Shown piece after piece: positions 1 to 34,288 of a stretch of 34,288 bases of DNA (positions within the stretch are counted from its first letter, which is position 1; each line of letters begins with the position of its first letter). Position numbers and translations under genes: made by a program. The notes under the pieces are model-generated. The model was not told where the DNA came from and did not search any database. It saw only the letters and a list, made by a program, of their open reading frames with translations. Origin of the DNA: a virus (taxonomy: Duplodnaviria; Heunggongvirae; Uroviricota; Caudoviricetes); IMG/VR virus record IMGVR_UViG_2548876869_000012. One strand, given 5' to 3'.

Positions 1-1362
1 ATGTTTAAACCGGAACTCCTTTCCCCGGCGGGAACGCTGAAAAATATGCGTTACGCTTTCGCTTATGGCGCAGATGCTGTTTATGCGGGCCAGCCGCGTT
101 ATTCCCTGCGTGTGCGCAACAACGAATTCAACCACGAAAATCTTCAGCTCGGCATCAATGAAGCCCACGCGCTGGGGAAAAAGTTTTATGTCGTGGTCAA
201 CATTGCACCGCACAACGCCAAGCTGAAAACCTTTATCCGTGACCTGAAACCGGTGGTGGAAATGGGGCCGGATGCGCTGATTATGTCCGATCCAGGGCTG
301 ATTATGCTGGTGCGTGAGCACTTCCCTGAAATGCCGATCCACCTTTCGGTGCAGGCTAACGCCGTGAACTGGGCGACGGTGAAATTCTGGCAGCAAATGG
401 GCCTGACCCGCGTGATCCTCTCTCGCGAGCTGTCGCTGGAAGAGATTGAAGAGATCCGCAATCAGGTGCCGGATATGGAGATCGAGATCTTCGTTCACGG
501 CGCGCTGTGCATGGCCTACTCCGGTCGCTGCCTGCTCTCTGGCTATATCAACAAGCGCGACCCGAACCAGGGCACCTGCACCAACGCCTGCCGCTGGGAG
601 TACAACGTCCAGGAAGGGAAAGAAGATGATGTTGGCAACATCGTACACAAGTACGAGCCGATTCCGGTGCAAAATGTTGAGCCGACGCTGGGTATCGGCG
701 CACCAACCGACAAAGTGTTTATGATCGAAGAGGCCCAGCGTCCGGGCGAGTATATGACCGCGTTTGAAGATGAGCACGGCACTTACATCATGAACTCGAA
801 AGATCTGCGCGCCATCGCCCATGTAGAACGCCTGACCAAAATGGGCGTGCATTCGCTGAAAATCGAAGGTCGTACCAAATCTTTCTACTATTGTGCACGC
901 ACCGCACAGGTTTACCGCAAAGCTATCGATGACGCCGCTGCGGGAAAACCGTTCGATACCAGCCTGCTGGAAACTCTGGAAGGTCTGGCGCATCGTGGCT
1001 ATACCGAAGGTTTCCTGCGTCGTCATACTCACGACGATTATCAGAACTACGAATACGGTTATTCAGTTTCTGACCGCCAGCAGTTTGTTGGTGAGTTTAC
1101 CGGTGAGCGCAAGGGGGACCTCGCGGCGGTAGCGGTGAAAAATAAATTCTCCGTTGGCGACAGCCTTGAGCTGATGACGCCGCAAGGCAACATTAATTTT
1201 ACCCTTGAGCACATGGAAAACGCCAAAGGCGAAGCTATGCCGATAGCACCAGGCGATGGTTATACTGTGTGGCTCCCGGTCCCGCAGGATCTTGAGCTCA
1301 ATTACGCGCTGCTGATGCGTAATTTCTCCGGGGAAACCACGCGTAATCCCCACGGTAAGTGA
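1..1362 (+). CDS. yegQ: U32-family peptidase YegQ (host gene, 453 aa, appears full length)
   Basis: ATG at position 1; translation MFKPELLSPAGTLKNMRYAFAYGADAVYAGQPRYSLRVRNNEF... matches my memory of enterobacterial YegQ; host-like GC-rich composition. Confidence 0.85.
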   Translation: MFKPELLSPAGTLKNMRYAFAYGADAVYAGQPRYSLRVRNNEFNHENLQLGINEAHALGKKFYVVVNIAPHNAKLKTFIRDLKPVVEMGPDALIMSDPGLIMLVREHFPEMPIHLSVQANAVNWATVKFWQQMGLTRVILSRELSLEEIEEIRNQVPDMEIEIFVHGALCMAYSGRCLLSGYINKRDPNQGTCTNACRWEYNVQEGKEDDVGNIVHKYEPIPVQNVEPTLGIGAPTDKVFMIEEAQRPGEYMTAFEDEHGTYIMNSKDLRAIAHVERLTKMGVHSLKIEGRTKSFYYCARTAQVYRKAIDDAAAGKPFDTSLLETLEGLAHRGYTEGFLRRHTHDDYQNYEYGYSVSDRQQFVGEFTGERKGDLAAVAVKNKFSVGDSLELMTPQGNINFTLEHMENAKGEAMPIAPGDGYTVWLPVPQDLELNYALLMRNFSGETTRNPHGK

Positions 1363-1393
1363 TTAATTTCGATTATTTTTCCCGGATGGAAAA

Positions 1394-1415
1394 TTCTTAG
1401 AAACCGATCACATAC
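1394..1415 (+). promoter_or_regulatory. Putative CRP site of the cyaR promoter (TTAGA-N6-TCACA, TCACA at 1408-1412); -10 TATCAT at 1434-1439
   Basis: Half-site TCACA is perfect and the other half is 3/5; site centre about 42 nt upstream of the inferred cyaR 5' end; cyaR is known to be CRP-activated. Confidence 0.35.
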
Positions 1416-1446
1416 AGCTGTATTTATTAAGGTTATCATCCGTTTC

Positions 1447-1533
1447 GCTGAAAAACATAACCCATAAAATGCTAGCTGTACCAGGAACCACCTCCTTAGC
1501 CTGTGTAATCTCCCTTACACGGGCTTATTTTTT
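1447..1533 (+). ncRNA. cyaR: CyaR (RyeE) Hfq-dependent small RNA
   Basis: Sequence GCTGAAAAACATAACCCATAAAATGCTAGCTGTACCAGGAACCACCTCCTTAGCCTGTGTAATCTCCCTTACACGGGCTTATTTTTT matches the E. coli CyaR sequence as I remember it, including the anti-SD loop CCACCTCCTTA and the terminator hairpin plus T-run; lies directly downstream of yegQ as in E. coli. Confidence 0.8.
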
Positions 1534-1534
1534 A
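1507..1534. repeat. attR core: 28-bp direct repeat AATCTCCCTTACACGGGCTTATTTTTTA at the ogr-proximal prophage junction, overlapping the cyaR 3' end
   Basis: Identical 28-mer recurs at 33786-33813 just beyond int; the two copies bracket a complete P2-like gene set. Confidence 0.8.
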
Positions 1535-1634: not shown

Positions 1635-1853
1635 TTACATCCACATAATTTGCTGCCCTGACGGCAACGGGTGCGGTCTTACGGCGTGGACTTCTCCCGG
1701 CTTCACGATGTATCGCTGTACCGACTCATAAGTGATGAACGTGGCGCTGCAATTCACGTTCTGACACTGGTGATAACGCTCTTTTGTCGTGTCAGTGATA
1801 TAGCGGCTTGTACGCGCATGTGCGGCATGCTGGCATAAAGGACAATGAAACAT
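1635..1853 (-). CDS. ogr: Ogr, zinc-finger late-gene transcription activator (72 aa)
   Basis: Translation MFHCPLCQHAAHARTSRYITDTTKERYHQCQNVNCSATF... with Cys4 motif; ATG at 1851-1853 preceded by a purine-rich RBS; the track ORF extends to a TTG at 1916 but the 72-aa form matches P2 Ogr length. Confidence 0.9.
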   Translation of the reverse strand: MFHCPLCQHAAHARTSRYITDTTKERYHQCQNVNCSATFITYESVQRYIVKPGEVHAVRPHPLPSGQQIMWM

Positions 1854-1934: not shown

Positions 1935-3098
1935 TCACTCATCATCTTCTGTTTCGTACTCCACATCAGAAAGCCTGACCTCAAGCTCTAAGGACGTCGT
2001 GAAGCCGCTATTATTCAGAAAATGTGTCACCTTAGTGATTGTCCAGTCCTGCTCGTCTATGACGCGCTTAAAGCCTGACACTTTAACCGGTGTTTCCGTG
2101 TAAATATCAGCCCGACCGGTAGCCAGGCTGATGGAGAACTCCGCAACGCCCCGTTGCAGTTTATCCCACTTCGCCTGAGCGGCGCGCATGGCCTGCGCTT
2201 TCGTGGCATATACCGTGGTCAGGGCAAAAACATTGTCAGCCTCACCTGCCATGTATTCACCTTCGCGCGCTTCCGGTACTTTTGGCGCTTTCTTCTGCGT
2301 GACCGGTTTCGCTTTCGGGTGCTCCAGTGCGCGCAGGTGTTTCTCTTTCTTTTTGCGTTTCAGTTTTACCTTCTGCTTTTGCGGCTTCGGGTCTTTGGTG
2401 TGTAACCACTTTGCCGTTACGCCGGTGTAGGCTCCACGGTCAGCAATCGCAAAATGATGGCGGTCACCGTCGCTGCGGGTGATGGTGACCTGCGGGATTT
2501 TTTTACCGCTGGCCGTCACCCCCTGCCCCGCTTTGAGAAACAGCAGTTTTCCCATTTTTACCGACACCTCACCGCCGTTGCGTTCTGCAAGACGGGTCAG
2601 AAATTTCGCATCAGACTCCTGCGACTGGTCGATGTGCGGGATTTTAATTCCGGCCAGTGACGGAGCGACACTGGCTTCCAGCCTGTTACGGGAGGCTATC
2701 GCCTCAACAATCGCACCGAGCGTGGTGTCATGCCATGAGCCTTCACGGCGGGAATTGAGCGTCCCGCGAAAATCTGCACTCCGGGCGCGGATGGTGACCA
2801 CATCCGGTGCGCCCCGGTGTTCAACCTCATCAACGGTAAATTTCCCTTTGCATACCAGGGCAAAACCTTTCCAGCCGATATACACCGTCAGGACAGCGCC
2901 ACGAATCGGTAGTCCGACCTGCCCGTCGGCATCGTTCAGTTCAATATCAAGCTGGTCAGCCTCAAAGCCCCGGTTATCCGTCAGGGTCATGCTCATCAGA
3001 CGGTCGCTGATATTGCCGGTAATATCCCTGCTGTCGAGCATCAGCATGTAATCCGGCGTCAGCGTACTGCCTGCATCAAATGTCAGTGCATCCAGCAT
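1935..3098 (-). CDS. D: Tail protein D (late control D, 387 aa)
   Basis: Length and position after ogr match P2 gpD; start overlaps the U stop. Confidence 0.9.
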   Translation of the reverse strand: MLDALTFDAGSTLTPDYMLMLDSRDITGNISDRLMSMTLTDNRGFEADQLDIELNDADGQVGLPIRGAVLTVYIGWKGFALVCKGKFTVDEVEHRGAPDVVTIRARSADFRGTLNSRREGSWHDTTLGAIVEAIASRNRLEASVAPSLAGIKIPHIDQSQESDAKFLTRLAERNGGEVSVKMGKLLFLKAGQGVTASGKKIPQVTITRSDGDRHHFAIADRGAYTGVTAKWLHTKDPKPQKQKVKLKRKKKEKHLRALEHPKAKPVTQKKAPKVPEAREGEYMAGEADNVFALTTVYATKAQAMRAAQAKWDKLQRGVAEFSISLATGRADIYTETPVKVSGFKRVIDEQDWTITKVTHFLNNSGFTTSLELEVRLSDVEYETEDDE

Positions 3099-8647: not shown

Positions 8648-8929
8648 ATGACATACGCACTGATTGATAATTCAACTCTAACTGCAGTCCAAAGAATCGA
8701 GGGGAAAGTAAAAACAAGATCGAAGGACTCAGTAGATACAGACATAATAGCATTTGAGAACTATATACAGTCTATTTTGTTCTATGATCACGTTATCGCG
8801 GTTGATGATTATATTCCAGAGTACCGTGGGAGTAGGATTTCAAGTTTCAGAGAGATATTATTTCTTGATAAAGCACAATATGGGTTGGATGAAATTGAAA
8901 GTGAAGCAAAAAAATATCTGATGCATTGA
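8648..8929 (+). CDS. Hypothetical protein (93 aa), first ORF of the cargo module at the Z/fun locus
   Basis: ATG with RBS AAGGA; AT-rich; opposite strand to the flanking late operons; no motif I recognise. Confidence 0.55.
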   Translation: MTYALIDNSTLTAVQRIEGKVKTRSKDSVDTDIIAFENYIQSILFYDHVIAVDDYIPEYRGSRISSFREILFLDKAQYGLDEIESEAKKYLMH

Positions 8930-10065
8930 AACCTAAAATTCGTGGTGGAACATTTGTTAATGACGATTTTAAAAAACTAATTGAACTTCTTCAGACACAT
9001 ATCATATGTACATGGGACATTAGTTCAAGTGTTTATCATCTAACACTGAAGAACTTATCTGATGGAGGTAAGGAGTTTGAAAAATATGGTAACATTGCTG
9101 CTGCCATTTTTTCAGAACTGCGTGATGCTGCTGAGTCTGGTAATAGAACAAATGGCGATGTTGAACTTCTCGATCGATTTGGCAACCCTATTCGCAAGGG
9201 GTACAAAGTTCCCGGAGCAAAATGGGGGGATGGCACATCTGCTGGTGAAGCATCAGATGCAATCAAAGCATTCGTGGCTTCGCTTGTATGGCTGGCTAAT
9301 CGGGCAGTATTTTATTCTCTCACAGCTAAGTACCTTCAAGCAGATACTTTTTTATATCCATTACGTCAGGCGTATCAACAGACATATTTAAGCCAAAACT
9401 GTCAGTATGGTTTTGACTATGCTAAACATATTGTAGAAAACTTTTCCACTTCGTTAAGTCATGATCTCATTGATATTCATTCTGGTGGTAAAGCTGTAGC
9501 AACAGCAACTTCGCTTCCTTTATTTTCGGCATGGCTCGCAAAAGAAACTGGTGATCCAAGTTGTATTGTTGAAGCTGCTTATAACATAAGGGACAACAAC
9601 GAATTTGTAAGGGCCCGTGAGAAAATGCGAGAAATAAAGCGCTTGTTTGATGAAAATGAATTGCCTCAAGCTAATAAGTCAGTAAGAGCATTGCTTACTG
9701 AAGTATCGAAAGAATCAGATTATATTCGAACTAAGTATGGGCTCAAGACTAGACAAGGTGTACCTGTAACTAAGCTTGTACATGTATACAATACTGTTGC
9801 GGCTATTAATTCCCTTCCGAAACTACCGACCTTTAATTTTAAAGTTAAAGTTCCTGATTTCTTATATGATCTTAAAAAACCCAAGGGGTTTCGTGCTCTC
9901 TATCGAAATTTGACTAATGATCTTTCTACTGTGTGGTCGTTAGGAGAAGCTCGAGATATTCTTGGAAGTAAAGTTGTGATAGATAATCATGCAAGAATTT
10001 ACAGTCCGAAGCATGAAGAACCGCGTTTCAAAAACTCTCATTCCCCATATAAGAGCCCGATGTAG
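8926..10065 (+). CDS. Hypothetical protein (379 aa), second ORF of the cargo module; TTG start overlapping the upstream stop (TTGA), possibly the continuation of one frameshifted gene
   Basis: Long open frame in AT-rich DNA; no in-frame ATG near the 5' end; A7 run at 8908-8914 immediately upstream would join it to the 93-aa ORF by a -1 shift. Confidence 0.55.
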   Translation: MKPKIRGGTFVNDDFKKLIELLQTHIICTWDISSSVYHLTLKNLSDGGKEFEKYGNIAAAIFSELRDAAESGNRTNGDVELLDRFGNPIRKGYKVPGAKWGDGTSAGEASDAIKAFVASLVWLANRAVFYSLTAKYLQADTFLYPLRQAYQQTYLSQNCQYGFDYAKHIVENFSTSLSHDLIDIHSGGKAVATATSLPLFSAWLAKETGDPSCIVEAAYNIRDNNEFVRAREKMREIKRLFDENELPQANKSVRALLTEVSKESDYIRTKYGLKTRQGVPVTKLVHVYNTVAAINSLPKLPTFNFKVKVPDFLYDLKKPKGFRALYRNLTNDLSTVWSLGEARDILGSKVVIDNHARIYSPKHEEPRFKNSHSPYKSPM

Positions 10066-10179: not shown

Positions 10180-10707
10180 TTATTGCGGCATTTCCGGCCA
10201 TTCAGGATTTGCAGGATCCACACGACTGACCAGAACACTGTAGCGTTCCCATGCCTCCAGTCGACTGCGCTCCTCATCTGTTGCCATATTCAGCCTGACA
10301 GCGCGCTCCAGCGGCAAAATCACGGATTCAGCATCTGCAAGAAGTCTGGCTTTCCGATTTTCTGCCTGCTGCTGCAATTCCTCTGCCGTATAAATTCGTT
10401 TAATCACTGTACAGTCCTTAAACATCCAGTTCCCTGAAATGTCCGCCCGTCGGTTAGCAGTAATATCCGGCACTTCAACAACACTTAATCCATCCGGTCT
10501 GATAGCTGTCACATCCTTTTCCACATAGCGGATAATATTATCTTTGTCGTACGCTATTTTTATCGTGTCATCAGCAAAATACTTTTGTTCTTCGTACCAG
10601 TTCTTACCATCTTCTGAAAAAAACCAGACAACATCAAAGTCCTTTGTCAATTGATATTGTTCAACCGTTTTTGGATTACCTGCCGTTATATTTATCAAAT
10701 GCTGCAT
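10180..10707 (-). CDS. G: Tail fiber assembly protein G (175 aa)
   Basis: P2 synteny and length; immediately follows H. Confidence 0.85.
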
Positions 10708-10710
10708 AAA

Positions 10711-13029
10711 TTATACCTGCGCCACGTTATACCAAGTCCCGTTAATGTATTTCTGCACCGGTCTGTAATATACGCCACCAATGTTATCGGCAGAGTTTGA
10801 GCCGGTATCCTGAACAATAATGCCGGAATATACACACCCGGACGGTGCCTGATGTGTCCATGTCATACCATTGTTCGCAGGTTTGTATGTGGCAGCACCA
10901 CCAAGCCGGATATCCCGGACATAGCGTGAATCAAAATTACTATAGTTAGATGGTGATACCTGCCCGTTAACAGCAAAAGTGATGCTGTTATCTGTATTTC
11001 TCTGACTGTAAAAATGCCAGCCTGCATCATCACCTAATTCAGCCACCACCGGACGACTTGAGTTTCCCCACAAATTGAATGCGGCTTCCTTCGTGGATGT
11101 ATTACTGCTGCTGACCGTGAATTTTTTCCCGCTACCGGCACGTACTTTGGTACTTGAGGCAATATCACCAGTAACACTCAGGCCATGCCCCATTGATACA
11201 GCACCCGTGGCATCATTTATAATCAGTGGTCTTAAATTATTATAAGTGCCTAATCTGTCACCTGATTTAGTCAACATAAAATAAGTGCTGCTGCCATCAT
11301 TCCTGATAAAGAATCCATAATTGCCATAAGCAATGCGCAGACCATTAGCACTGCTTGATGTAATCTCACCTCTTGAACGGAGACCATAAGCGGAGCTGAG
11401 TGATAATTCTTCCTGAGCATCAGTATTACCAGTCGCCCAGCGAACTACCCCGCCCTGTACTGTTTCATGCCAGATAGTGTCTCCTTCTCCACCACGAAAC
11501 TTTCTGAGATATTTTTTGCCGCCTCTGGTGCCTGAACATAAGGCCGTAGACATATAGGCATTCTGGCTTCCGCCATCCTGATTAATCGTTCCGGTCATTG
11601 CGTCGCCCTGACGATTCCAGTCACGACGCCAGCCGGGGGAGTAGCCGTCCCCATGATTAATGTAAGTGAATTGCGCGCTGGTTGTACCGCCACCGCTTGA
11701 TGTTGTCGGCGTGGTCACTCGGATAGTGATTGCAGATTTAGTTCCCATGACCTCGACGACACAACCAGCCAGGTGGATATCACCACATCCGGTATCCGTA
11801 ATGATTTTGTTATTTGCATATGACCAGGAGCCTTTGCACATCCAGTACGGATGATTAAATGCACCACGGGAATCCAGCCATTCAATAAACTGAGCGGTTG
11901 TCCAGTTTCCGGCTTCAGTGCTCAAACCGCCGCTATAAGCACGACAGGCACCGATATTTTTCGTGAAGGTATCCTTTCCCGGAATATCCGCACCGTTCTG
12001 ATCTTTCTGAAGACGTTTTTCAGCATTGTCATAGGCAGACTTCACTGCTTTTGGCGTTGCCGCGAGGGTTTCAGAATCACTGTTGGTGGCGCTACTGAGC
12101 TGGACAAGCCCTTTTCGCGCTGTGGTGGCATCCTGTGCAGTGTATTTCCCGTTAGCAAGGTCATACGCTGTCTTAACCGCCTTTGGCGTTGCCGCAAGCG
12201 TTTCAGAATCGCTGTTGGTGACGCTACTTAGCTGGACAAGGCCTTTTCGCGCGGTGGTGGCGTCCTGTGCGGTATATTTCCCGTTAGCCAGGTCATATGC
12301 TGCTTTTACCGCTTTTGGTGTTGCAGCGAGCGTTTCAGACGTGCTGTTGGTGGCACTACTGAGCTGGACAAGACCTTTTCGCGCTGTGGTGGCATCCTGC
12401 GCAGTATATTTCCCGTTAGCAAGGTCATACGCGGCCTTTACCGCTTTCGGCGTTGCGGCCAGTGTTTCAGACGTGCTGTTGGTCGCACTGCTTAACTGAG
12501 TAAAACCTTTGGCGGTCAGCGAGGCGTCCGGGTGACGTCGTGACTGTTCGTGCTCTGCAATTTTGTCATCAACGTAATCCTGCGTCGCCATCACTGTTGT
12601 GGTGTCAATGGTCAGCTCCACTGAGGCCACACTGCTGACGATGATGACCATGCGACAGGTCTGCGAACGCCCTGAGCCTTCGGCGAGAGCTGGCTTATAA
12701 CTTTCGGCCATGTTCGCCACGGCAATTAATGTTCCCGCATCATCGTACAGGCCAAGCTCACGCATCCAGAAACCGCCCACCTCCGGCGGAATAACCAGCT
12801 CTGCGATAATATAATTACTGTTTCGTTTGTCCTGGCTGATTTTGTTCAGCGCATGTCGCCAGACTTCATGGATAAGTCCGGTCTGTCCGGCATCCGGGAC
12901 AGGCAATTTACCACCGCCATCCCCGACGGCCATCGTGGTAATGTTGACCTTCCGCCCTCCCGGTGCGGTTGCCGCTGCCAGCTTTGCTGCACCGGCAGTG
13001 GTGATAACGGTTCTGAATTTTGTGCTCAT
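10711..13029 (-). CDS. H: Tail fiber protein H (772 aa) with internal 44-aa tandem repeats
   Basis: P2 synteny; conserved N-terminus; about 100 aa longer than P2 gpH (669 aa) because of the repeats. Confidence 0.9.
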   Translation of the reverse strand: MSTKFRTVITTAGAAKLAAATAPGGRKVNITTMAVGDGGGKLPVPDAGQTGLIHEVWRHALNKISQDKRNSNYIIAELVIPPEVGGFWMRELGLYDDAGTLIAVANMAESYKPALAEGSGRSQTCRMVIIVSSVASVELTIDTTTVMATQDYVDDKIAEHEQSRRHPDASLTAKGFTQLSSATNSTSETLAATPKAVKAAYDLANGKYTAQDATTARKGLVQLSSATNSTSETLAATPKAVKAAYDLANGKYTAQDATTARKGLVQLSSVTNSDSETLAATPKAVKTAYDLANGKYTAQDATTARKGLVQLSSATNSDSETLAATPKAVKSAYDNAEKRLQKDQNGADIPGKDTFTKNIGACRAYSGGLSTEAGNWTTAQFIEWLDSRGAFNHPYWMCKGSWSYANNKIITDTGCGDIHLAGCVVEVMGTKSAITIRVTTPTTSSGGGTTSAQFTYINHGDGYSPGWRRDWNRQGDAMTGTINQDGGSQNAYMSTALCSGTRGGKKYLRKFRGGEGDTIWHETVQGGVVRWATGNTDAQEELSLSSAYGLRSRGEITSSSANGLRIAYGNYGFFIRNDGSSTYFMLTKSGDRLGTYNNLRPLIINDATGAVSMGHGLSVTGDIASSTKVRAGSGKKFTVSSSNTSTKEAAFNLWGNSSRPVVAELGDDAGWHFYSQRNTDNSITFAVNGQVSPSNYSNFDSRYVRDIRLGGAATYKPANNGMTWTHQAPSGCVYSGIIVQDTGSNSADNIGGVYYRPVQKYINGTWYNVAQV
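12027..12519. repeat. Tandem repeat inside H: about 3.7 copies of a 132-bp (44-aa) unit
   Basis: Unit start GTTTCAGA recurs at 12068, 12200, 12332 and 12464; protein unit TAQDATTARKGLVQLSSATNS(T/D)SETLAATPKAVKxAYDLANGKY. Confidence 0.85.
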
Positions 13030-23656: not shown

Positions 23657-24690
23657 TGAGCAAGAAAAAAGGGAAAACACCGCAACCTGCGGCAAAAACA
23701 ATGATCGCCAGCGCCCCGAAAATGGAGGCATTCACCTTTGGCGAGCCGGTACCGGTACTCGACCGCCGTGACATTCTGGATTACGTCGAATGCATCAGTA
23801 ACGGCAGATGGTATGAGCCACCGGTCAGCTTTACCGGTCTGGCAAAAAGCCTGCGTGCTGCCGTGCATCACAGCTCGCCGATTTACGTTAAACGCAATAT
23901 TCTGGCCTCGACATTTATCCCGCATCCGTGGCTTTCACAGCAGAATTTCAGCCGCTTTGTGCTGGACTTTCTGGTGTTCGGTAATGCGTTTCTGGAAAAG
24001 CGTTACAGCACCACCGGTAAGGTCATCAGACTGGAAACCTCACCGGCAAAATATACCCGCCGTGGCGTGGAAGAGGATGTTTACTGGTGGGTGCCGTCCT
24101 TCCATGAGCCGACACCTTTCGCGCCCGGCTCCGTGTTTCACCTGCTGGAGCCGGATATTAATCAGGAGCTGTACGGTCTGCCGGAATATCTCAGCGCCCT
24201 TAACTCTGCCTGGCTGAATGAATCAGCCACGCTGTTCCGCCGCAAGTATTACGAAAACGGCGCTCATGCCGGATACATCATGTACGTTACCGATGCCGTG
24301 CAGGATCGCAACGATATCGAAATGCTTCGCGAAAACATGGTGAAGTCGAAAGGCCGCAACAACTTTAAAAACCTGTTTCTCTATGCCCCGCAGGGGAAAG
24401 CCGACGGCATTAAAATTATCCCGCTCAGTGAAGTGGCGACGAAGGACGATTTTTTTAATATCAAAAAAGCCAGCGCCGCTGACCTGCTGGACGCGCACCG
24501 CATCCCCTTTCAGTTGATGGGCGGCAAGCCGGAAAACGTCGGGTCTCTGGGTGATATTGAGAAAGTGGCAAAGGTCTTTGTCCGCAATGAACTTATCCCG
24601 CTACAGGACAGGATTCGGGAAATAAACGGCTGGCTCGGTCAGGAGGTCATCCGCTTTAAAAACTACTCACTGGACACTGACAACGGCTGA
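23656..24690 (+). CDS. Q: Portal protein Q (344 aa)
   Basis: Start overlaps the P stop (TGATG); P2 length. Confidence 0.9.
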   Translation: MSKKKGKTPQPAAKTMIASAPKMEAFTFGEPVPVLDRRDILDYVECISNGRWYEPPVSFTGLAKSLRAAVHHSSPIYVKRNILASTFIPHPWLSQQNFSRFVLDFLVFGNAFLEKRYSTTGKVIRLETSPAKYTRRGVEEDVYWWVPSFHEPTPFAPGSVFHLLEPDINQELYGLPEYLSALNSAWLNESATLFRRKYYENGAHAGYIMYVTDAVQDRNDIEMLRENMVKSKGRNNFKNLFLYAPQGKADGIKIIPLSEVATKDDFFNIKKASAADLLDAHRIPFQLMGGKPENVGSLGDIEKVAKVFVRNELIPLQDRIREINGWLGQEVIRFKNYSLDTDNG

Positions 24691-24859: not shown

Positions 24860-24878
24860 GTGCTTTCCCCGCCTCGCC
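24860..24878. other. cos: cos site (19-nt cohesive-end sequence, P2 type)
   Basis: GTGCTTTCCCCGCCTCGCC is the reverse complement of GGCGAGGCGGGGAAAGCAC, which I recall as the P2 cohesive end; located just past Q as in P2. Confidence 0.6.
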
Positions 24879-25025: not shown

Positions 25026-25910
25026 TCAGGCGCAAGTTGGCATTGAGACCCCTTTCAGGGTATTAGGAATAATTATTTCAGGAGAAAAAATCATCACTTC
25101 CTCTCCAGATTTTTTGAGATGCGCTGTATATTGCAATGAATACTCAACTTGCGGAAATCCATTATAAATATCTTTAATTTCCTTAGCGTTATCATAAGAA
25201 ACAAGCCAATTTGGGAAATTAATTTCTGTGAGTTTCTTCATAACCAATACATGATCATCATGCTCATAAAAATTCCTGTAAAGCCCTTGTCCTTTAATAT
25301 AGTAAGGAGGATCCAAATACAAAAGAATTTTATTTTTATCCACCTTTCCCATATTATCCATAAAATTCAAGGCATCAAGAAAATCCAAAGCATCCAGATT
25401 AGTTACTACTATTCTTTGATTATAATTTGCTATCTTCTCAATTCTTGAAATTAAATCCGCCCTGTTAAAGCGAACATCCATTTTCCATTTTCCATTTTGT
25501 GATTTCCCGCCTATAACCCCCGCCTTGAGAATACCTGAACGATTTGTTCTATTTAAGAAAAACGCAGCAAAGCCAACCTCAAGCTTAGTAAACTCAGAAG
25601 GATTCGAAATAACATAGCGATGAAAAGACCATTCATCCATATCTATCTTTGCTCGGCTAATAAGTCGGCAAAGCTCATCAGTATCACTAACAACAGATGA
25701 CCAAAAAGAATAAACAGCAAAATCTGCATCATTTATATAGATTTTACGGACATACTCTTCCAATAATAATTCTAAAGCCACCCCTGCACCACCAGCGTAA
25801 GGTTCTGCATATGCTCCATCATTCAACGAGTTTTTTTCAATAACATCTTTTAAAAAGTAAGATAACTTACCTTTCCCGCCGGGGTATCTTAATGGAGTAT
25901 AAAATTTCAT
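25026..25910 (-). CDS. Dam-family DNA N6-adenine methyltransferase (294 aa)
   Basis: Motif I-like EPYAGGAGV near the N-terminus and catalytic DPPY (YLDPPYY); AT-rich cargo at the P2 tin/old position; ATG with GAGGG RBS. Confidence 0.8.
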   Translation of the reverse strand: MKFYTPLRYPGGKGKLSYFLKDVIEKNSLNDGAYAEPYAGGAGVALELLLEEYVRKIYINDADFAVYSFWSSVVSDTDELCRLISRAKIDMDEWSFHRYVISNPSEFTKLEVGFAAFFLNRTNRSGILKAGVIGGKSQNGKWKMDVRFNRADLISRIEKIANYNQRIVVTNLDALDFLDALNFMDNMGKVDKNKILLYLDPPYYIKGQGLYRNFYEHDDHVLVMKKLTEINFPNWLVSYDNAKEIKDIYNGFPQVEYSLQYTAHLKKSGEEVMIFSPEIIIPNTLKGVSMPTCA

Positions 25911-25979: not shown

Positions 25980-27482
25980 TCACTCACTCCAAATAAGGCT
26001 TAATAACAACTCAAAGTTATCCCACTCAGTGTTGACAGCCTCTTTTGAGGGAATTAAGTGTGGGTTATGTACATACTGCTGCAATGAACCATCATGTTTA
26101 GTTATTTGGCTCGAGAAAGTTATTACAGCCGTACATTGACTCCCCGTCATCTTTTTATTTTCCCGAAGGAAATTAGCACACATTTTAACCTTATCATGAA
26201 GCCCTGGAGTTCTATGTGGTTCCTTAAATTGTAACTTGTTTTCTTCAACAAAAGTGCTTACAGAGAGATCTATAAATATTCTCAACAATATTGAGATAGC
26301 ATTAGGGGTGTTATCAAATGTCAGATGCGACTTAAGCTCATTAAATATTCTAGAGCATTTCTTATGCCCTCTAAAATTAAATTTCACATAAGATGGCACC
26401 AACACATTACGATCTACTTTAGGAGGAGTTTTTCCCTTGTTTTTATTCTGTTCCGTACCCGAAACTTTAGATTTACTCTCTTCTGTGCCTACATGTCTAG
26501 AATAATCATCTTCCTGTTTATCCACACCTGTATTCTTTAAGGCATCACCTTCTGAAAGACCTGCTTTCTTTACACTCACAGATGCATCATTTTTGTCAAT
26601 AGAATCATGTTTTTTCTCTGTAAGAAAAGATTTAGGCTCTAGTAAACTCCACGGCTTATCTAAAAGAGATTCTGAAGGTTTTATTTTTTGTTCAATAATA
26701 AATGTAACCCTGTCATCTTGGCTACGAATCCTATTAACAGTAAAACAAGCCTTACCTTTATCATCCTCTTCAATCATTACATCTAAAATATTTTTTAATT
26801 GTGCACAAAAACGTTCATAAGGCTGATATGAGTATAGAACTCCATTAATGCTTTTTAAATTAAAATAATCCCTCACCTTTAAATCACCAAAAAGACGCGT
26901 GATGTTTGTGATTTTTAAAAGTCTTTTTTTAGCAATTATCTCTTTATATAAATCAGTATTGAACTCTATAAATGTAAGTATTTGATTACCAAATGACTGC
27001 TTACCCATCCTAGCCAGATGTCGTGCTTTTTCTGTTGCAGTCCATTCAACTCTTCCAACTCCAGCATTTTGACCAGTATGCTTTAAATTGACCCAATGCT
27101 CATATTCATCATCGTCAAAAAGAACGCAGTTATCTATAACATTAATATCTTTAAGCTGAGTAATCTTAAGTTTTTCAAAAGCTTTCCGTGCTTTTTCTGT
27201 TGGTGCAAGTCTAGGAGAGTGTAAAAGTTTAAGGGCTGTAACTCGACGATTACCTTCAGCAACGACGAAAAAGCCAGATTCCTCTTCACTAGGATAAACT
27301 AATATGTTTTCAGACGGATCTAAACCTTTCGAAGCAATATCTTTAGCCAAGCGATAAATGCGGTCGTACTGCAAGTCAAGCATCTTGGCAATAGCATCAC
27401 GCTGATTTTCTGCTGACGTCGGGAAACGAGGGTTATCAACATCCAAAAGTAACTTATTGATATTCATTGATTTTAGTTGATT
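25980..27482 (-). CDS. ParB/Srx-superfamily N-terminal-domain protein with unassigned C-terminal domain (about 500 aa; alternative upstream ATG at 27554 gives 524 aa)
   Basis: N-terminus INKLLLDVDNPRF ... VVAEGNRRVTALKLL resembles the ParB N-terminal nuclease/CTPase fold (GxxRxxA box); preferred start ATG at 27480-27482 has a GAGGA RBS; AT-rich; sits 69 bp upstream of the Dam gene on the same strand. Confidence 0.6.
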   Translation of the reverse strand, partial: NQLKSMNINKLLLDVDNPRFPTSAENQRDAIAKMLDLQYDRIYRLAKDIASKGLDPSENILVYPSEEESGFFVVAEGNRRVTALKLLHSPRLAPTEKARKAFEKLKITQLKDINVIDNCVLFDDDEYEHWVNLKHTGQNAGVGRVEWTATEKARHLARMGKQSFGNQILTFIEFNTDLYKEIIAKKRLLKITNITRLFGDLKVRDYFNLKSINGVLYSYQPYERFCAQLKNILDVMIEEDDKGKACFTVNRIRSQDDRVTFIIEQKIKPSESLLDKPWSLLEPKSFLTEKKHDSIDKNDASVSVKKAGLSEGDALKNTGVDKQEDDYSRHVGTEESKSKVSGTEQNKNKGKTPPKVDRNVLVPSYVKFNFRGHKKCSRIFNELKSHLTFDNTPNAISILLRIFIDLSVSTFVEENKLQFKEPHRTPGLHDKVKMCANFLRENKKMTGSQCTAVITFSSQITKHDGSLQQYVHNPHLIPSKEAVNTEWDNFELLLSLIWSE

Positions 27483-27841
27483 CATCAACATATCCTCTGT
27501 TGAATCTTTATGATAAAAATTAATTATTTTTATCATAAATGATAGCGTAAACATAGTCTTATGAACGACATCAGCCCTGAAGCTTCAAAACTATCATTTA
27601 CGTTTGCGAGGCACCATCTATCACATTGATTTATAATAAGTATCTTTATTTTCACTGCATTGCTCTCAAAAAATCACATAGATGGAAATTCCCCGTTGAC
27701 ACACTCCCAAGTGATGCAGATACATTTCAAGTGCTTCATACACATGATAACGGCTATCCCCCTAAATTCTATGCGTTTCTTTTCCCTCCAGCACAAGGTT
27801 GAAATATCTTGCGTGCAGCTTTACTTTGTGAATCTTTGTCA

Positions 27842-31880: not shown

Positions 31881-32156
31881 TTAACGTGGTTCACCGAGAC
31901 CTAACCACATCAACCAGCCGTCACGAATCTCTTTAGGACGGCTTTCATAAGCCAGTTTTAGTCCGTTATTCCATGCCGGAAGGTATACCCAATATTCACC
32001 AGCACGCCCCGATACTGACTGAGGGTCAGTAATCTCAATAACTGGTAATTTCCCTTTCTCAATCATGCCCCTTACAGCTCTTGGAGTTTTACCAATGAGT
32101 TTTGCAAACTCCTGATAAGGCACGGCATCAGTCACGCTTACAAGCTGTCTATTCAT
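31881..32156 (-). CDS. cox: Cox, excision and early-lytic control protein (91 aa)
   Basis: First gene of the early operon, divergent from C, 91 aa as in P2 Cox. Confidence 0.8.
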   Translation of the reverse strand: MNRQLVSVTDAVPYQEFAKLIGKTPRAVRGMIEKGKLPVIEITDPQSVSGRAGEYWVYLPAWNNGLKLAYESRPKEIRDGWLMWLGLGEPR

Positions 32157-32277: not shown

Positions 32278-32577
32278 ATGTCAATAGACGTTTCGGAGAA
32301 GTTGAAGCTAATCCGTGAATCTGAAAGGTTAAACCGTAAAGAATTCAGTGAATTAACTGGTGTAGCCTACAGCTCACTTTCGAGCTATGAGAGCCGGTCA
32401 AAAAACGCTGGAGTTGAAGCCATAATGAAGGTCTTACAACATCCCAGATTTACTAAATATACTTTGTGGTTCATGACTGATCAGGTAGCTCCAGAAGCCG
32501 GGCAAATTGCGCCCGCTCTCGCACACTTTGGGCAAAACGAAACAACGTCGCCCCACTCCGGTCAAAAGACTGGTTAA
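32278..32577 (+). CDS. C: Immunity repressor C (99 aa)
   Basis: ATG at 32278 (MSIDVSEKLKLIRESERLNRKEFSELTGVAYSSL...) has a helix-turn-helix-like N-terminus; C-terminus ...QIAPALAHFGQNETTSPHSGQKTG resembles P2 C as I recall it; 99 aa; divergent from cox. Confidence 0.8.
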   Translation: MSIDVSEKLKLIRESERLNRKEFSELTGVAYSSLSSYESRSKNAGVEAIMKVLQHPRFTKYTLWFMTDQVAPEAGQIAPALAHFGQNETTSPHSGQKTG

Positions 32578-32692: not shown

Positions 32693-33706
32693 ATGGCAAT
32701 CAAAAAACTCGATGATGGTCGATATGAAGTGGACATCCGCCCTACTGGACGTAACGGAAAACGCATCCGTAGGAAGTTTGATAAGAAAAGCGAAGCTGTC
32801 GCTTTCGAAAAATACACGTTGTACAACCACCACAATAAAGAATGGCTATCAAAACCAACAGACAAACGACGTCTGTCGGAACTGACACAGATCTGGTGGG
32901 ATTTAAAGGGTAAACACGAAGAGCATGGGAAATCTAATCTTGGAAAAATTGAAATCTTCACAAAAATAACGAATGACCCATGCGCATTTCAAATCACGAA
33001 ATCCCTTATCAGCCAGTACTGCGCCACCCGAAGAAGTCAGGGTATTAAACCTTCGAGTATCAATCGTGATTTAACATGTATTAGCGGCATGTTTACAGCC
33101 CTGATTGAAGCGGAGTTATTCTTTGGTGAGCACCCTATCAGAGGGACAAAGAGGCTTAAGGAGGAAAAACCAGAAACAGGCTATCTCACACAGGAAGAAA
33201 TTGCCTTACTGCTTGCAGCACTTGACGGCGACAACAAAAAGATTGCGATTCTTTGCCTGAGTACAGGAGCACGTTGGGGAGAAGCAGCTCGTTTGAAAGC
33301 AGAAAATATCATCCATAACCGCGTCACGTTTGTTAAAACGAAAACAAACAAACCACGCACCGTCCCGATCTCAGAGGCTGTTGCCAAAATGATCGCGGAT
33401 AACAAACGAGGTTTTTTATTCCCTGATGCTGATTACCCTCGCTTCAGACGAACAATGAAAGCAATAAAACCGGATTTGCCAACGGGGCAAGCCACACATG
33501 CACTAAGGCACAGCTTTGCCACTCATTTCATGATTAATGGAGGAAGTATTATCACGCTACAACGGATACTAGGTCACACGCGGATTGAGCAAACTATGGT
33601 TTACGCTCATTTTGCGCCAGAGTACCTTCAGGACGCCATTTCTCTTAATCCGCTAAGAGGTGGTACTGAAGCCGAGAGTGTCCACACAGTGTCCACAGTA
33701 GAGTAA
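32693..33706 (+). CDS. int: Tyrosine integrase (337 aa)
   Basis: GGAGGG RBS; catalytic motifs HALRHSFATH and LGHTRIEQTMVYAHF; P2 Int length; adjacent to attL. Confidence 0.9.
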   Translation: MAIKKLDDGRYEVDIRPTGRNGKRIRRKFDKKSEAVAFEKYTLYNHHNKEWLSKPTDKRRLSELTQIWWDLKGKHEEHGKSNLGKIEIFTKITNDPCAFQITKSLISQYCATRRSQGIKPSSINRDLTCISGMFTALIEAELFFGEHPIRGTKRLKEEKPETGYLTQEEIALLLAALDGDNKKIAILCLSTGARWGEAARLKAENIIHNRVTFVKTKTNKPRTVPISEAVAKMIADNKRGFLFPDADYPRFRRTMKAIKPDLPTGQATHALRHSFATHFMINGGSIITLQRILGHTRIEQTMVYAHFAPEYLQDAISLNPLRGGTEAESVHTVSTVE

Positions 33707-33785
33707 CGTTTAAGGGCTTTCAGTGGTAATTTATGCCGCTCAAACCCGCATTGTACCGTTGAAAGCCCCTACTGGTGACACCCTA

Positions 33786-33813
33786 AATCTCCCTTACACG
33801 GGCTTATTTTTTA
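33786..33813. repeat. attL core: second copy of the 28-bp repeat AATCTCCCTTACACGGGCTTATTTTTTA
   Basis: Perfect match to 1507-1534; lies 80 bp past the int stop. Confidence 0.8.
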
Positions 33814-33970
33814 TGCATAAGCCCTATCCCTGGTCACCGTCTTCCATTGACCACATCGATAGAATCTCCCTTCATAGCACGATGCCTTTCACGTAACGGC
33901 ATCGTGCTCGCACAGGTTCCGGCTAAGCACAACCAGAACGCGCATGTTTGACGCTTACCAAAAAATATTC

Positions 33971-34288
33971 TCACTCTCCACATTTGAATGTCAGACGAGC
34001 GACGCCATGTAATCCTGCACCTTCTGTCTTCAGGTCAACTATCTGCATTTTTTTGCCCTGAGTAACACAGAAATGGGCTGCATCATTTTTTACTATATTT
34101 TCTGCACCAGATATTCTGCCCCTGGCTAAAGAAGCTTCGGCTTCGGTGTAGTATTGGTTATCGAGTTTACGCTGAATATTACTTTTATATGCAAGACCAA
34201 ATTTACCGATACTTGTCTCATCATTATGCACAGCACAACCAGACATAATAAAAATACTAATTAATGATATAGCAGCTATCTTTTTCAT
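33971..34288 (-). CDS. yegR: Putative lipoprotein YegR (host gene, 105 aa)
   Basis: ATG at the last three bases of the window (minus strand); signal peptide with lipobox-like IMSGC; length and position next to the yegQ/cyaR locus fit E. coli yegR from memory. Confidence 0.55.
   Translation of the reverse strand: MKKIAAISLISIFIMSGCAVHNDETSIGKFGLAYKSNIQRKLDNQYYTEAEASLARGRISGAENIVKNDAAHFCVTQGKKMQIVDLKTEGAGLHGVARLTFKCGE

Follow-up and report, generated by a model that had tools for sequence, protein, structure and literature searches.

What becomes of a bacterial small-RNA gene when a phage genome ends inside it is the question raised by cyaR (ryeE), whose terminator end coincides with the boundary of phage DNA in the 34,288-nucleotide stretch analysed here, hereafter the window. 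The window almost certainly holds an apparently complete prophage of the P2 type (Peduovirus), about 32.3 kb long, that was integrated at locI by Int-mediated site-specific recombination. LocI is the attachment site that P2 prefers in E. coli; it is the last 27 nt of cyaR, and the gene stays whole. An earlier note on this DNA, written from its letters, had put a prophage in the 3′ end of cyaR, and this placing is upheld both by the match of the gene to the Rfam family CyaR and by an exact 28-nt repeat that brackets the 32.3 kb of P2-type DNA. No evidence contradicts the anatomy of the prophage, which, like its identity to the recombination module of P2, the empty site and the frequency of occupation in the population, could be read directly from the sequences that were compared.

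The left end of the window carries the gene and what lies upstream of it:

1-1362, plus strand: yegQ/trhP, peptidase U32 family, the chromosomal left flank (Pfam Peptidase_U32 and its C-terminal domain; RefSeq annotation of matching loci).
1397-1412, plus strand: CRP-like site TTAGAAACCGATCACA in the promoter of cyaR, its centre some 42 nt before +1 (a match with two mismatches to TGTGA-N6-TCACA).
1447-1533, plus strand: cyaR (ryeE) small-RNA gene, full length (Rfam RF00112, fold, identity to empty-site and K-12 cyaR, RefSeq ncRNA).
1498-1525, plus strand: cyaR intrinsic terminator hairpin with an 11-bp stem and a 6-nt loop, followed by a U tract (terminator scan and fold).

The Rfam model RF00112 matches positions 1445-1530 of the plus strand over its full length (model positions 1-85 of 85) with 100.7 bits against a gathering score of 47 (E = 3e-19), and it is the alignment to K-12, where the RNA has a RefSeq ncRNA annotation, that sets the 87-nt gene at 1447-1533. 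On folding, these 87 nt give the expected hairpins, with a z-score of -3.0 against shuffles. The gene occupies its conserved position downstream of yegQ/trhP; a scan of one genome per species yielded 120 cyaR loci for comparison, and 118 of these have a YegQ homologue upstream of the RNA gene. The cyaR promoter of K-12 has been characterised experimentally and the promoter region here differs from it by one base. The tentative assignment of a CRP site to 1397-1412 rests on that near-identity, since the consensus match is not significant by itself, 19 such two-mismatch matches being found in the window where 14.8 are expected. A scan for sigma-70 promoters around cyaR called none, which is as expected of an activator-dependent promoter, and the scan is uninformative here. 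A tRNA-type target was also considered and was set aside when a scan of the window for tRNA and tmRNA found no genes.

The elements on which recombination would depend lie at the two junctions and in the genes beside the right-hand one:

1507-1534, no strand assigned: attL core, 28 nt, the same as the attR core and the attP core of P2 (repeat search, alignment to P2 attP, published core).
1533-1566, no strand assigned: predicted IHF site of the P arm (gap-free correspondence to P2 24324-24357).
1570-1597, no strand assigned: predicted Int arm-type sites of the P arm (gap-free correspondence to P2 24293-24320).
31881-32156, minus strand: cox, excision directionality factor and Pc repressor (Pfam Phage_Cox; 84% identical to P2 Cox).
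32693-33706, plus strand: int, tyrosine integrase (Pfam Int_N and Phage_integrase; 336 of 337 residues identical to P2 Int).
33673-33770, no strand assigned: predicted P′ arm with Int arm-type repeats (GTGTCCACA twice) and the Cox-binding region (identical to annotated P2 24399-24496).
33786-33813, no strand assigned: attR core, a displaced copy of the cyaR 3′ end (repeat search, alignment to P2 attP).
33971-34288, minus strand: yegR, the chromosomal right flank (RefSeq annotation of matching loci).

An exact direct repeat of 28 nt, AATCTCCCTTACACGGGCTTATTTTTTA, stands at 1507-1534 and again at 33786-33813; 100 shuffles gave no match. The published P2 core, AAAAAATAAGCCCGTGTAAGGGAGATT, is the exact reverse complement of 1507-1533 and agrees at 27 of 27 positions both there and at 33786-33812, and the alignment to the P2 genome (AF063097), at 96.5% identity, starts from window position 1507, the first base of the core. 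What the core covers is the loop of the cyaR terminator, the 3′ half of its stem and the U tract. The earlier view that the att core is the terminator end of cyaR is borne out by this agreement with the published attP and locI core and with the attP of AF063097, and the second copy of the 3′ end that it described at the right junction is there. Its description of the core as the last 28 nt of the gene needs amending, however, as the exact repeat is made up of the last 27 nt and one further base, and the repeat begins at 1507 rather than 1506. The boundaries of the prophage can be set to the base, from 1507/1535 to 33785/33813.

When attP is reconstructed by joining the phage side of attR, one copy of the core and the phage side of attL, the product corresponds almost base for base, and gap-free, to the annotated attP of P2, and it is predicted to include, around the core, the Int sites of both arms, with the Cox-binding region on the P′ side and the IHF site on the P side. 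If matters stand as in P2, integration would depend on Int and IHF acting on the core and on the P and P′ arms, and excision would require Cox in addition. Int with IHF would recombine attP with attB within the shared core, which would be the ordinary site-specific integration of P2. With attP carrying the same 27-28 nt as attB, recombination in the core would leave a full-length cyaR at attL that keeps its own promoter, seed region and terminator, and attR, adjoining int, would be left with a non-functional copy of the cyaR 3′ end. In the lysogen CyaR would be expected to be expressed normally and to reach its normal levels.

In-silico excision, in which window positions 1100-1534 are joined to 33814-34288, gives a product of 910 nt, and this was searched against 5,426 complete E. 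coli genomes. It is present uninterrupted and at 100% identity, for instance in NZ_CM188749, and the repeats accordingly fit the junctions of real empty sites. The two flanks are contiguous or nearly so in 4,565 of the 5,426 genomes, and the attR junction, running from int through the core to yegR, is covered to at least 80% in 811 (about 15%). The cyaR gene at attL is identical to that of unoccupied E. coli loci, as the earlier note had it in saying that the left junction keeps the gene at full length; between lysogen and empty site the only change, TGCATAAG to CGCGTAAT, comes after the U tract.

Variation on the right-hand side was also seen. Some E. coli, EC32 among them, differ from window 33786-33975 by a G-to-A variant of the core, ACACAGGC, and by some 170 bp of additional sequence that separate yegR from the right flank. 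A third occurrence of AATCTCCCTT, at 33863, was considered as a partial core and rejected: the 10-mer is not conserved, K-12 having AATCCTCCTT and ECMA0423 ATCCCCCTT in its place.

The site that is called empty may itself have a phage past, and one further feature bears on this:

33814-33875, no strand assigned: chromosomal flank made up of a P2-type P arm in decayed form, found at empty sites as well (local alignment).

The evidence leans somewhat towards a history in which the prophage entered the attL of an older P2-like element, the scar of which, a decayed P arm together with yegR, is the ‘empty’ site of every present-day E. coli; this refines the explanation by integration at locI and does not replace it. 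The flank at 33814-33875 resembles the P arm of the phage with a local alignment score of 22 against 7.6 ± 1.3, a score reached in none of 2000 shuffles, the alignment having a 16-nt gap over the IHF site, and the same sequence stands in empty sites. Relative to Escherichia sp. E1V33, E. coli (ECMA0423) has about 780 bp extra that start exactly after the cyaR terminator. This segment holds the arm-like sequence and yegR and ends in AATCCTCCATACTTGAACTGACTTTTTA, a degenerate core that matches 19 of 28 core positions without gaps, against a background, outside cyaR, of 9 matches of at least 19 of 28 in 1.9 million positions, and that directly abuts the ancestral flank following cyaR in E1V33. 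From the end of cyaR to the ancestral flank motif the distance is 21-51 nt in at least 17 species loci and 815 nt in E. coli, and among the 120 species loci YegR was found in E. coli alone. Against such a history, beside the degenerate core at the right of the E. coli-specific segment traces of a P′ arm or of int do not rise above chance, the comparison depends on one close outgroup (E1V33), the right-hand boundary of the segment is outside the window, and the similarity of the flank to the arm could instead stem from ancient capture of host DNA by a phage.

A bolder form of the same history, which we offer tentatively and regard as rather doubtful, is that the canonical ‘empty’ attB of P2 is the left junction of a much older P2-like element, that the roughly 780 bp are its fossil, and that the 3′ end of cyaR may be phage-derived. 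The terminator stem has a 3′ half, TTACACGGGC, that agrees fully with the P2 core, and two positions of this half differ in E. albertii and E1V33, which carry TTACGCAGGC with the same 5′ half of the stem. Among the 120 species loci TTACACGGGC is confined to E. coli, three Kluyvera and one Enterobacter hormaechei, a distribution that argues weakly for a phage origin of the E. coli cyaR 3′ end.

Use of the cyaR end by P2-like phages is not confined to E. coli. At loci L036, L052, L076, L085, L095, L104, L108, L111 and L120, which come from Citrobacter, Enterobacter, Buttiauxella, Salmonella enterica subsp. diarizonae, E. albertii and others, the local cyaR terminator is followed by a P2-type P arm, and L095, L108 and L120 have Ogr and D homologues as well. 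In the first of these three, from Citrobacter youngae ATCC 29220, only Ogr and 50 aa of D are left, making it a remnant like that of K-12. A second core-like copy lies 1.8-1.9 kb downstream of cyaR in Enterobacter hormaechei B56 and in E. nematophilus (24 of 28 and 23 of 28 positions, respectively), which suggests small core-flanked islands at the cyaR site in these two.

The K-12 remnant deserves closer comparison, the earlier note having stated, correctly, that K-12 has no more than a P2 remnant (ogrK and yegZ) at this locus. In MG1655 the order is cyaR, core, P arm, ogrK, the C-terminal fragment of D (yegZ), a partial core ACACGGGCTTATTTTTTT and the normal right flank. This cryptic prophage, PR-X, has the same site and orientation as the prophage in the window and, at about 97-98% identity, is colinear with its left end over the core, the P arm, ogr and the 3′ part of D (window 1507 to about 2140), but only some 630 bp of it are kept, the rest having been lost in a deletion that starts within D and stops midway through the attR core. 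The deletion joint reads CTGCTACAC followed immediately by GGGCTTATTTTTTT. The joint, GAGAACTCTGCTACAC and then GGGCTTATTTTTTT, lies within the att core, and at that place (window about 2140-2160) the sequence of D is itself core-like; the two observations together suggest that the K-12 remnant arose by Int-mediated recombination between a pseudo-site in D and attR, and not by random deletion.

How much of a phage the window holds is best judged from the genes between the repeats, of which the following anchor the account:

1602-1625, no strand assigned: terminator of ogr and the F operon, between cyaR and the convergent phage late genes (terminator scan; P2 annotation 24265-24288).
1635-1853, minus strand: ogr, late-gene activator, 72 aa (Pfam Ogr_Delta; 100% identical to P2 Ogr).
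1935-3098, minus strand: gene D (tail), the first late gene (Pfam Phage_GPD; 99% identical to P2 gpD).
24860-24878, minus strand: cos site, 19 nt (identical to P2).
25026-25910 and 25980-27554, minus strand: PD-Lambda-5 gene pair (PADLOC models; A, E = 6e-168; B, E = 1e-121).
32278-32577, plus strand: C-type immunity repressor, 99 aa (HTH_3 domain; 65% identical to P2 C, full length).

The prophage is so oriented that ogr and D adjoin cyaR and are convergent with it, the ogr terminator lying between, and int is at the far junction; the late genes run on to Q at 24690. In comparison with the annotated P2 record, the essential genes Q, P, O, N, M, L, X, Y, K, R, S, V, W, J, I, FI, FII, E, T, U, D, ogr, int, B and A are all full length and without stops, at 94-100% amino-acid identity.

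The genes that are not those of P2 lie where P2 has dispensable ones. The non-essential orf30, fun(Z), tin and old of P2 are missing, old and tin being replaced by the PD-Lambda-5 pair and fun(Z) by an orphan gene. The position of old and tin in P2 is a known defence hotspot, and the cargo island there is of low GC (0.33-0.40). The adjacent A and B genes both match their PADLOC models and form a predicted defence system, and B also matches a model for type II D12 methyltransferases (D12-class adenine methyltransferase). The orphan gene (phrog_13435; window 8648-10065, plus strand), also of low GC, encodes 472 aa when intact, and its protein has no match in Pfam, NCBIfam, PADLOC, the PDB or deposited phages. 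Here it is split at an A7 run (8908-8914) into ORFs of 93 aa (8648-8929) and 379 aa (8926-10065). The gene is present in only 7 of the 5,426 E. coli genomes; these seven have one extra base in the stretch and a single annotated protein, and in EC6622, the one in which the run was examined, it is A8. The frameshift is either a real mutation, and so slight decay, or a homopolymer sequencing error.

That split gene is one of two points in favour of a defective prophage, that is, of a P2-type prophage at locI that is cryptic and on its way to becoming a remnant like that of K-12, and not a live phage; the other is that remnants are common at the site, as in K-12, Citrobacter youngae (L095) and E. 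albertii (L111). We consider this improbable, since the broken gene occupies the place of a non-essential P2 gene, the essential genes are full length, without stops and 94-100% identical to their P2 counterparts, and there is no damage to cos, int, cox, either att core or either arm. A live prophage is the reading that we prefer, presumably one still able to excise, to grow and to form plaques. Mitomycin C, which the earlier note proposed for inducing it, is poorly suited as an induction test, as prophages of the P2 type do not respond to SOS induction and this one has a repressor of the P2 C type.

Least of all, to the point of being hardly credible, does the 28-nt repeat look like a chance or terminator-driven duplication made without site-specific recombination, with phage DNA that came by another route: for it speaks only that terminators are short and somewhat stereotyped, and it is ruled out by the lack of matches in shuffles, by the identity of the sequence to the annotated and published P2 core, by the reconstruction of attP and by the alignment to empty sites, both junctions falling exactly at the core and the excised site equalling real empty sites base for base.

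With integration at locI thus the preferred explanation, the closest counterpart is P2 itself at locI of E. coli C, with which the prophage shares the 27-nt core, the integrase (336 of 337 residues), the arm, IHF and Cox sites and the chromosomal site, as well as the gene order and the cos site. The differences are elsewhere. The C repressors are 65% and the Cox proteins 84% identical, and from these values the immunity type is probably another than that of P2. Protein G (10180-10707) is 75% identical to that of P2, and the match of H (10711-13029) is limited to the first 251 residues, the tip of the tail fibre being different. The prophage is a mosaic, essentially P2 in int and att and probably different from it in immunity type and host range. 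The earlier description of it as an intact occupant of ancestral type is apt in that it looks complete, the essential P2 genes being full length; ‘ancestral-type’ is only loosely right, as the C repressor (65%), the cargo genes and the tail-fibre tip all differ from P2.

The arrangement has its parallels in phages that integrate into tRNA and tmRNA genes (186 in tRNA-Ile; Fels-2 and SopE-phi in ssrA; PMC3448106), where the core likewise overlaps the 3′ end, including a hairpin, of a structured RNA, and in integration into the small-RNA gene ryeB/sdsR of Salmonella (PMC3603311, PMC3333887), where again the core overlaps such a 3′ end. In all of these the phage copy restores the gene at one junction and a displaced 3′ fragment is found at the other. 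Integrases that target tRNA genes use a hairpin arm and the 3′ end (PMC3448106), to which the position of the cyaR core over the loop, stem and U tract of the terminator is a parallel. In contrast to the tRNA and tmRNA type, however, the target here is an Hfq-dependent small RNA, the core lies over a Rho-independent terminator and not a tRNA arm, and int sits at the junction far from the intact gene.

A P2 prophage at cyaR/locI is already known, and to find one in the window is correct but ordinary. A 2014 paper (PMC3931495), in a passage that cites Barreiro and Haggard-Ljungquist (1992), gives locI, with the core AAAAAATAAGCCCGTGTAAGGGAGATT, as the preferred site of P2 in E. coli C, and states that in K-12 a P2 remnant fills locI. 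In Nilsson et al. (2011; PMC3448106) the P2 site is given as MG1655 coordinate 2165238. The RefSeq record has ‘cryptic prophage PR-X’ at 2167183-2167811, overlapping the last 18 nt of cyaR (2167114-2167200). The coordinate 2165238 is presumably in an older MG1655 numbering, in which we take it to adjoin cyaR. Bobay et al. (2013), where they cite Wassarman et al. (2001), name ryeE of E. coli as a previously known phage target; beyond that paper, full-text searches found no explicit discussion of the overlap between cyaR and the P2 site. Little new follows from the main result, given that publications from 1992-2001 onwards, and the RefSeq annotation, already record the site, the core and the K-12 remnant.

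Its practical value is in annotation, where cyaR should not be called disrupted. The locus is a textbook case of an Hfq-dependent small-RNA gene serving as an attachment site just as tRNA genes do, with the phage-borne 3′ end leaving the gene whole. Modestly more interesting than this are the nested scars, the presence of yegR in a probable fossil element and the use of cyaR across genera, all of which are relevant to the part that phages play in shaping small-RNA genes at their 3′ ends. If the bolder of the two histories proposed for the empty site were true, temperate phages would have remodelled a core small RNA at its terminator and Hfq-binding end and, in doing so, would have created the site that P2 uses today.
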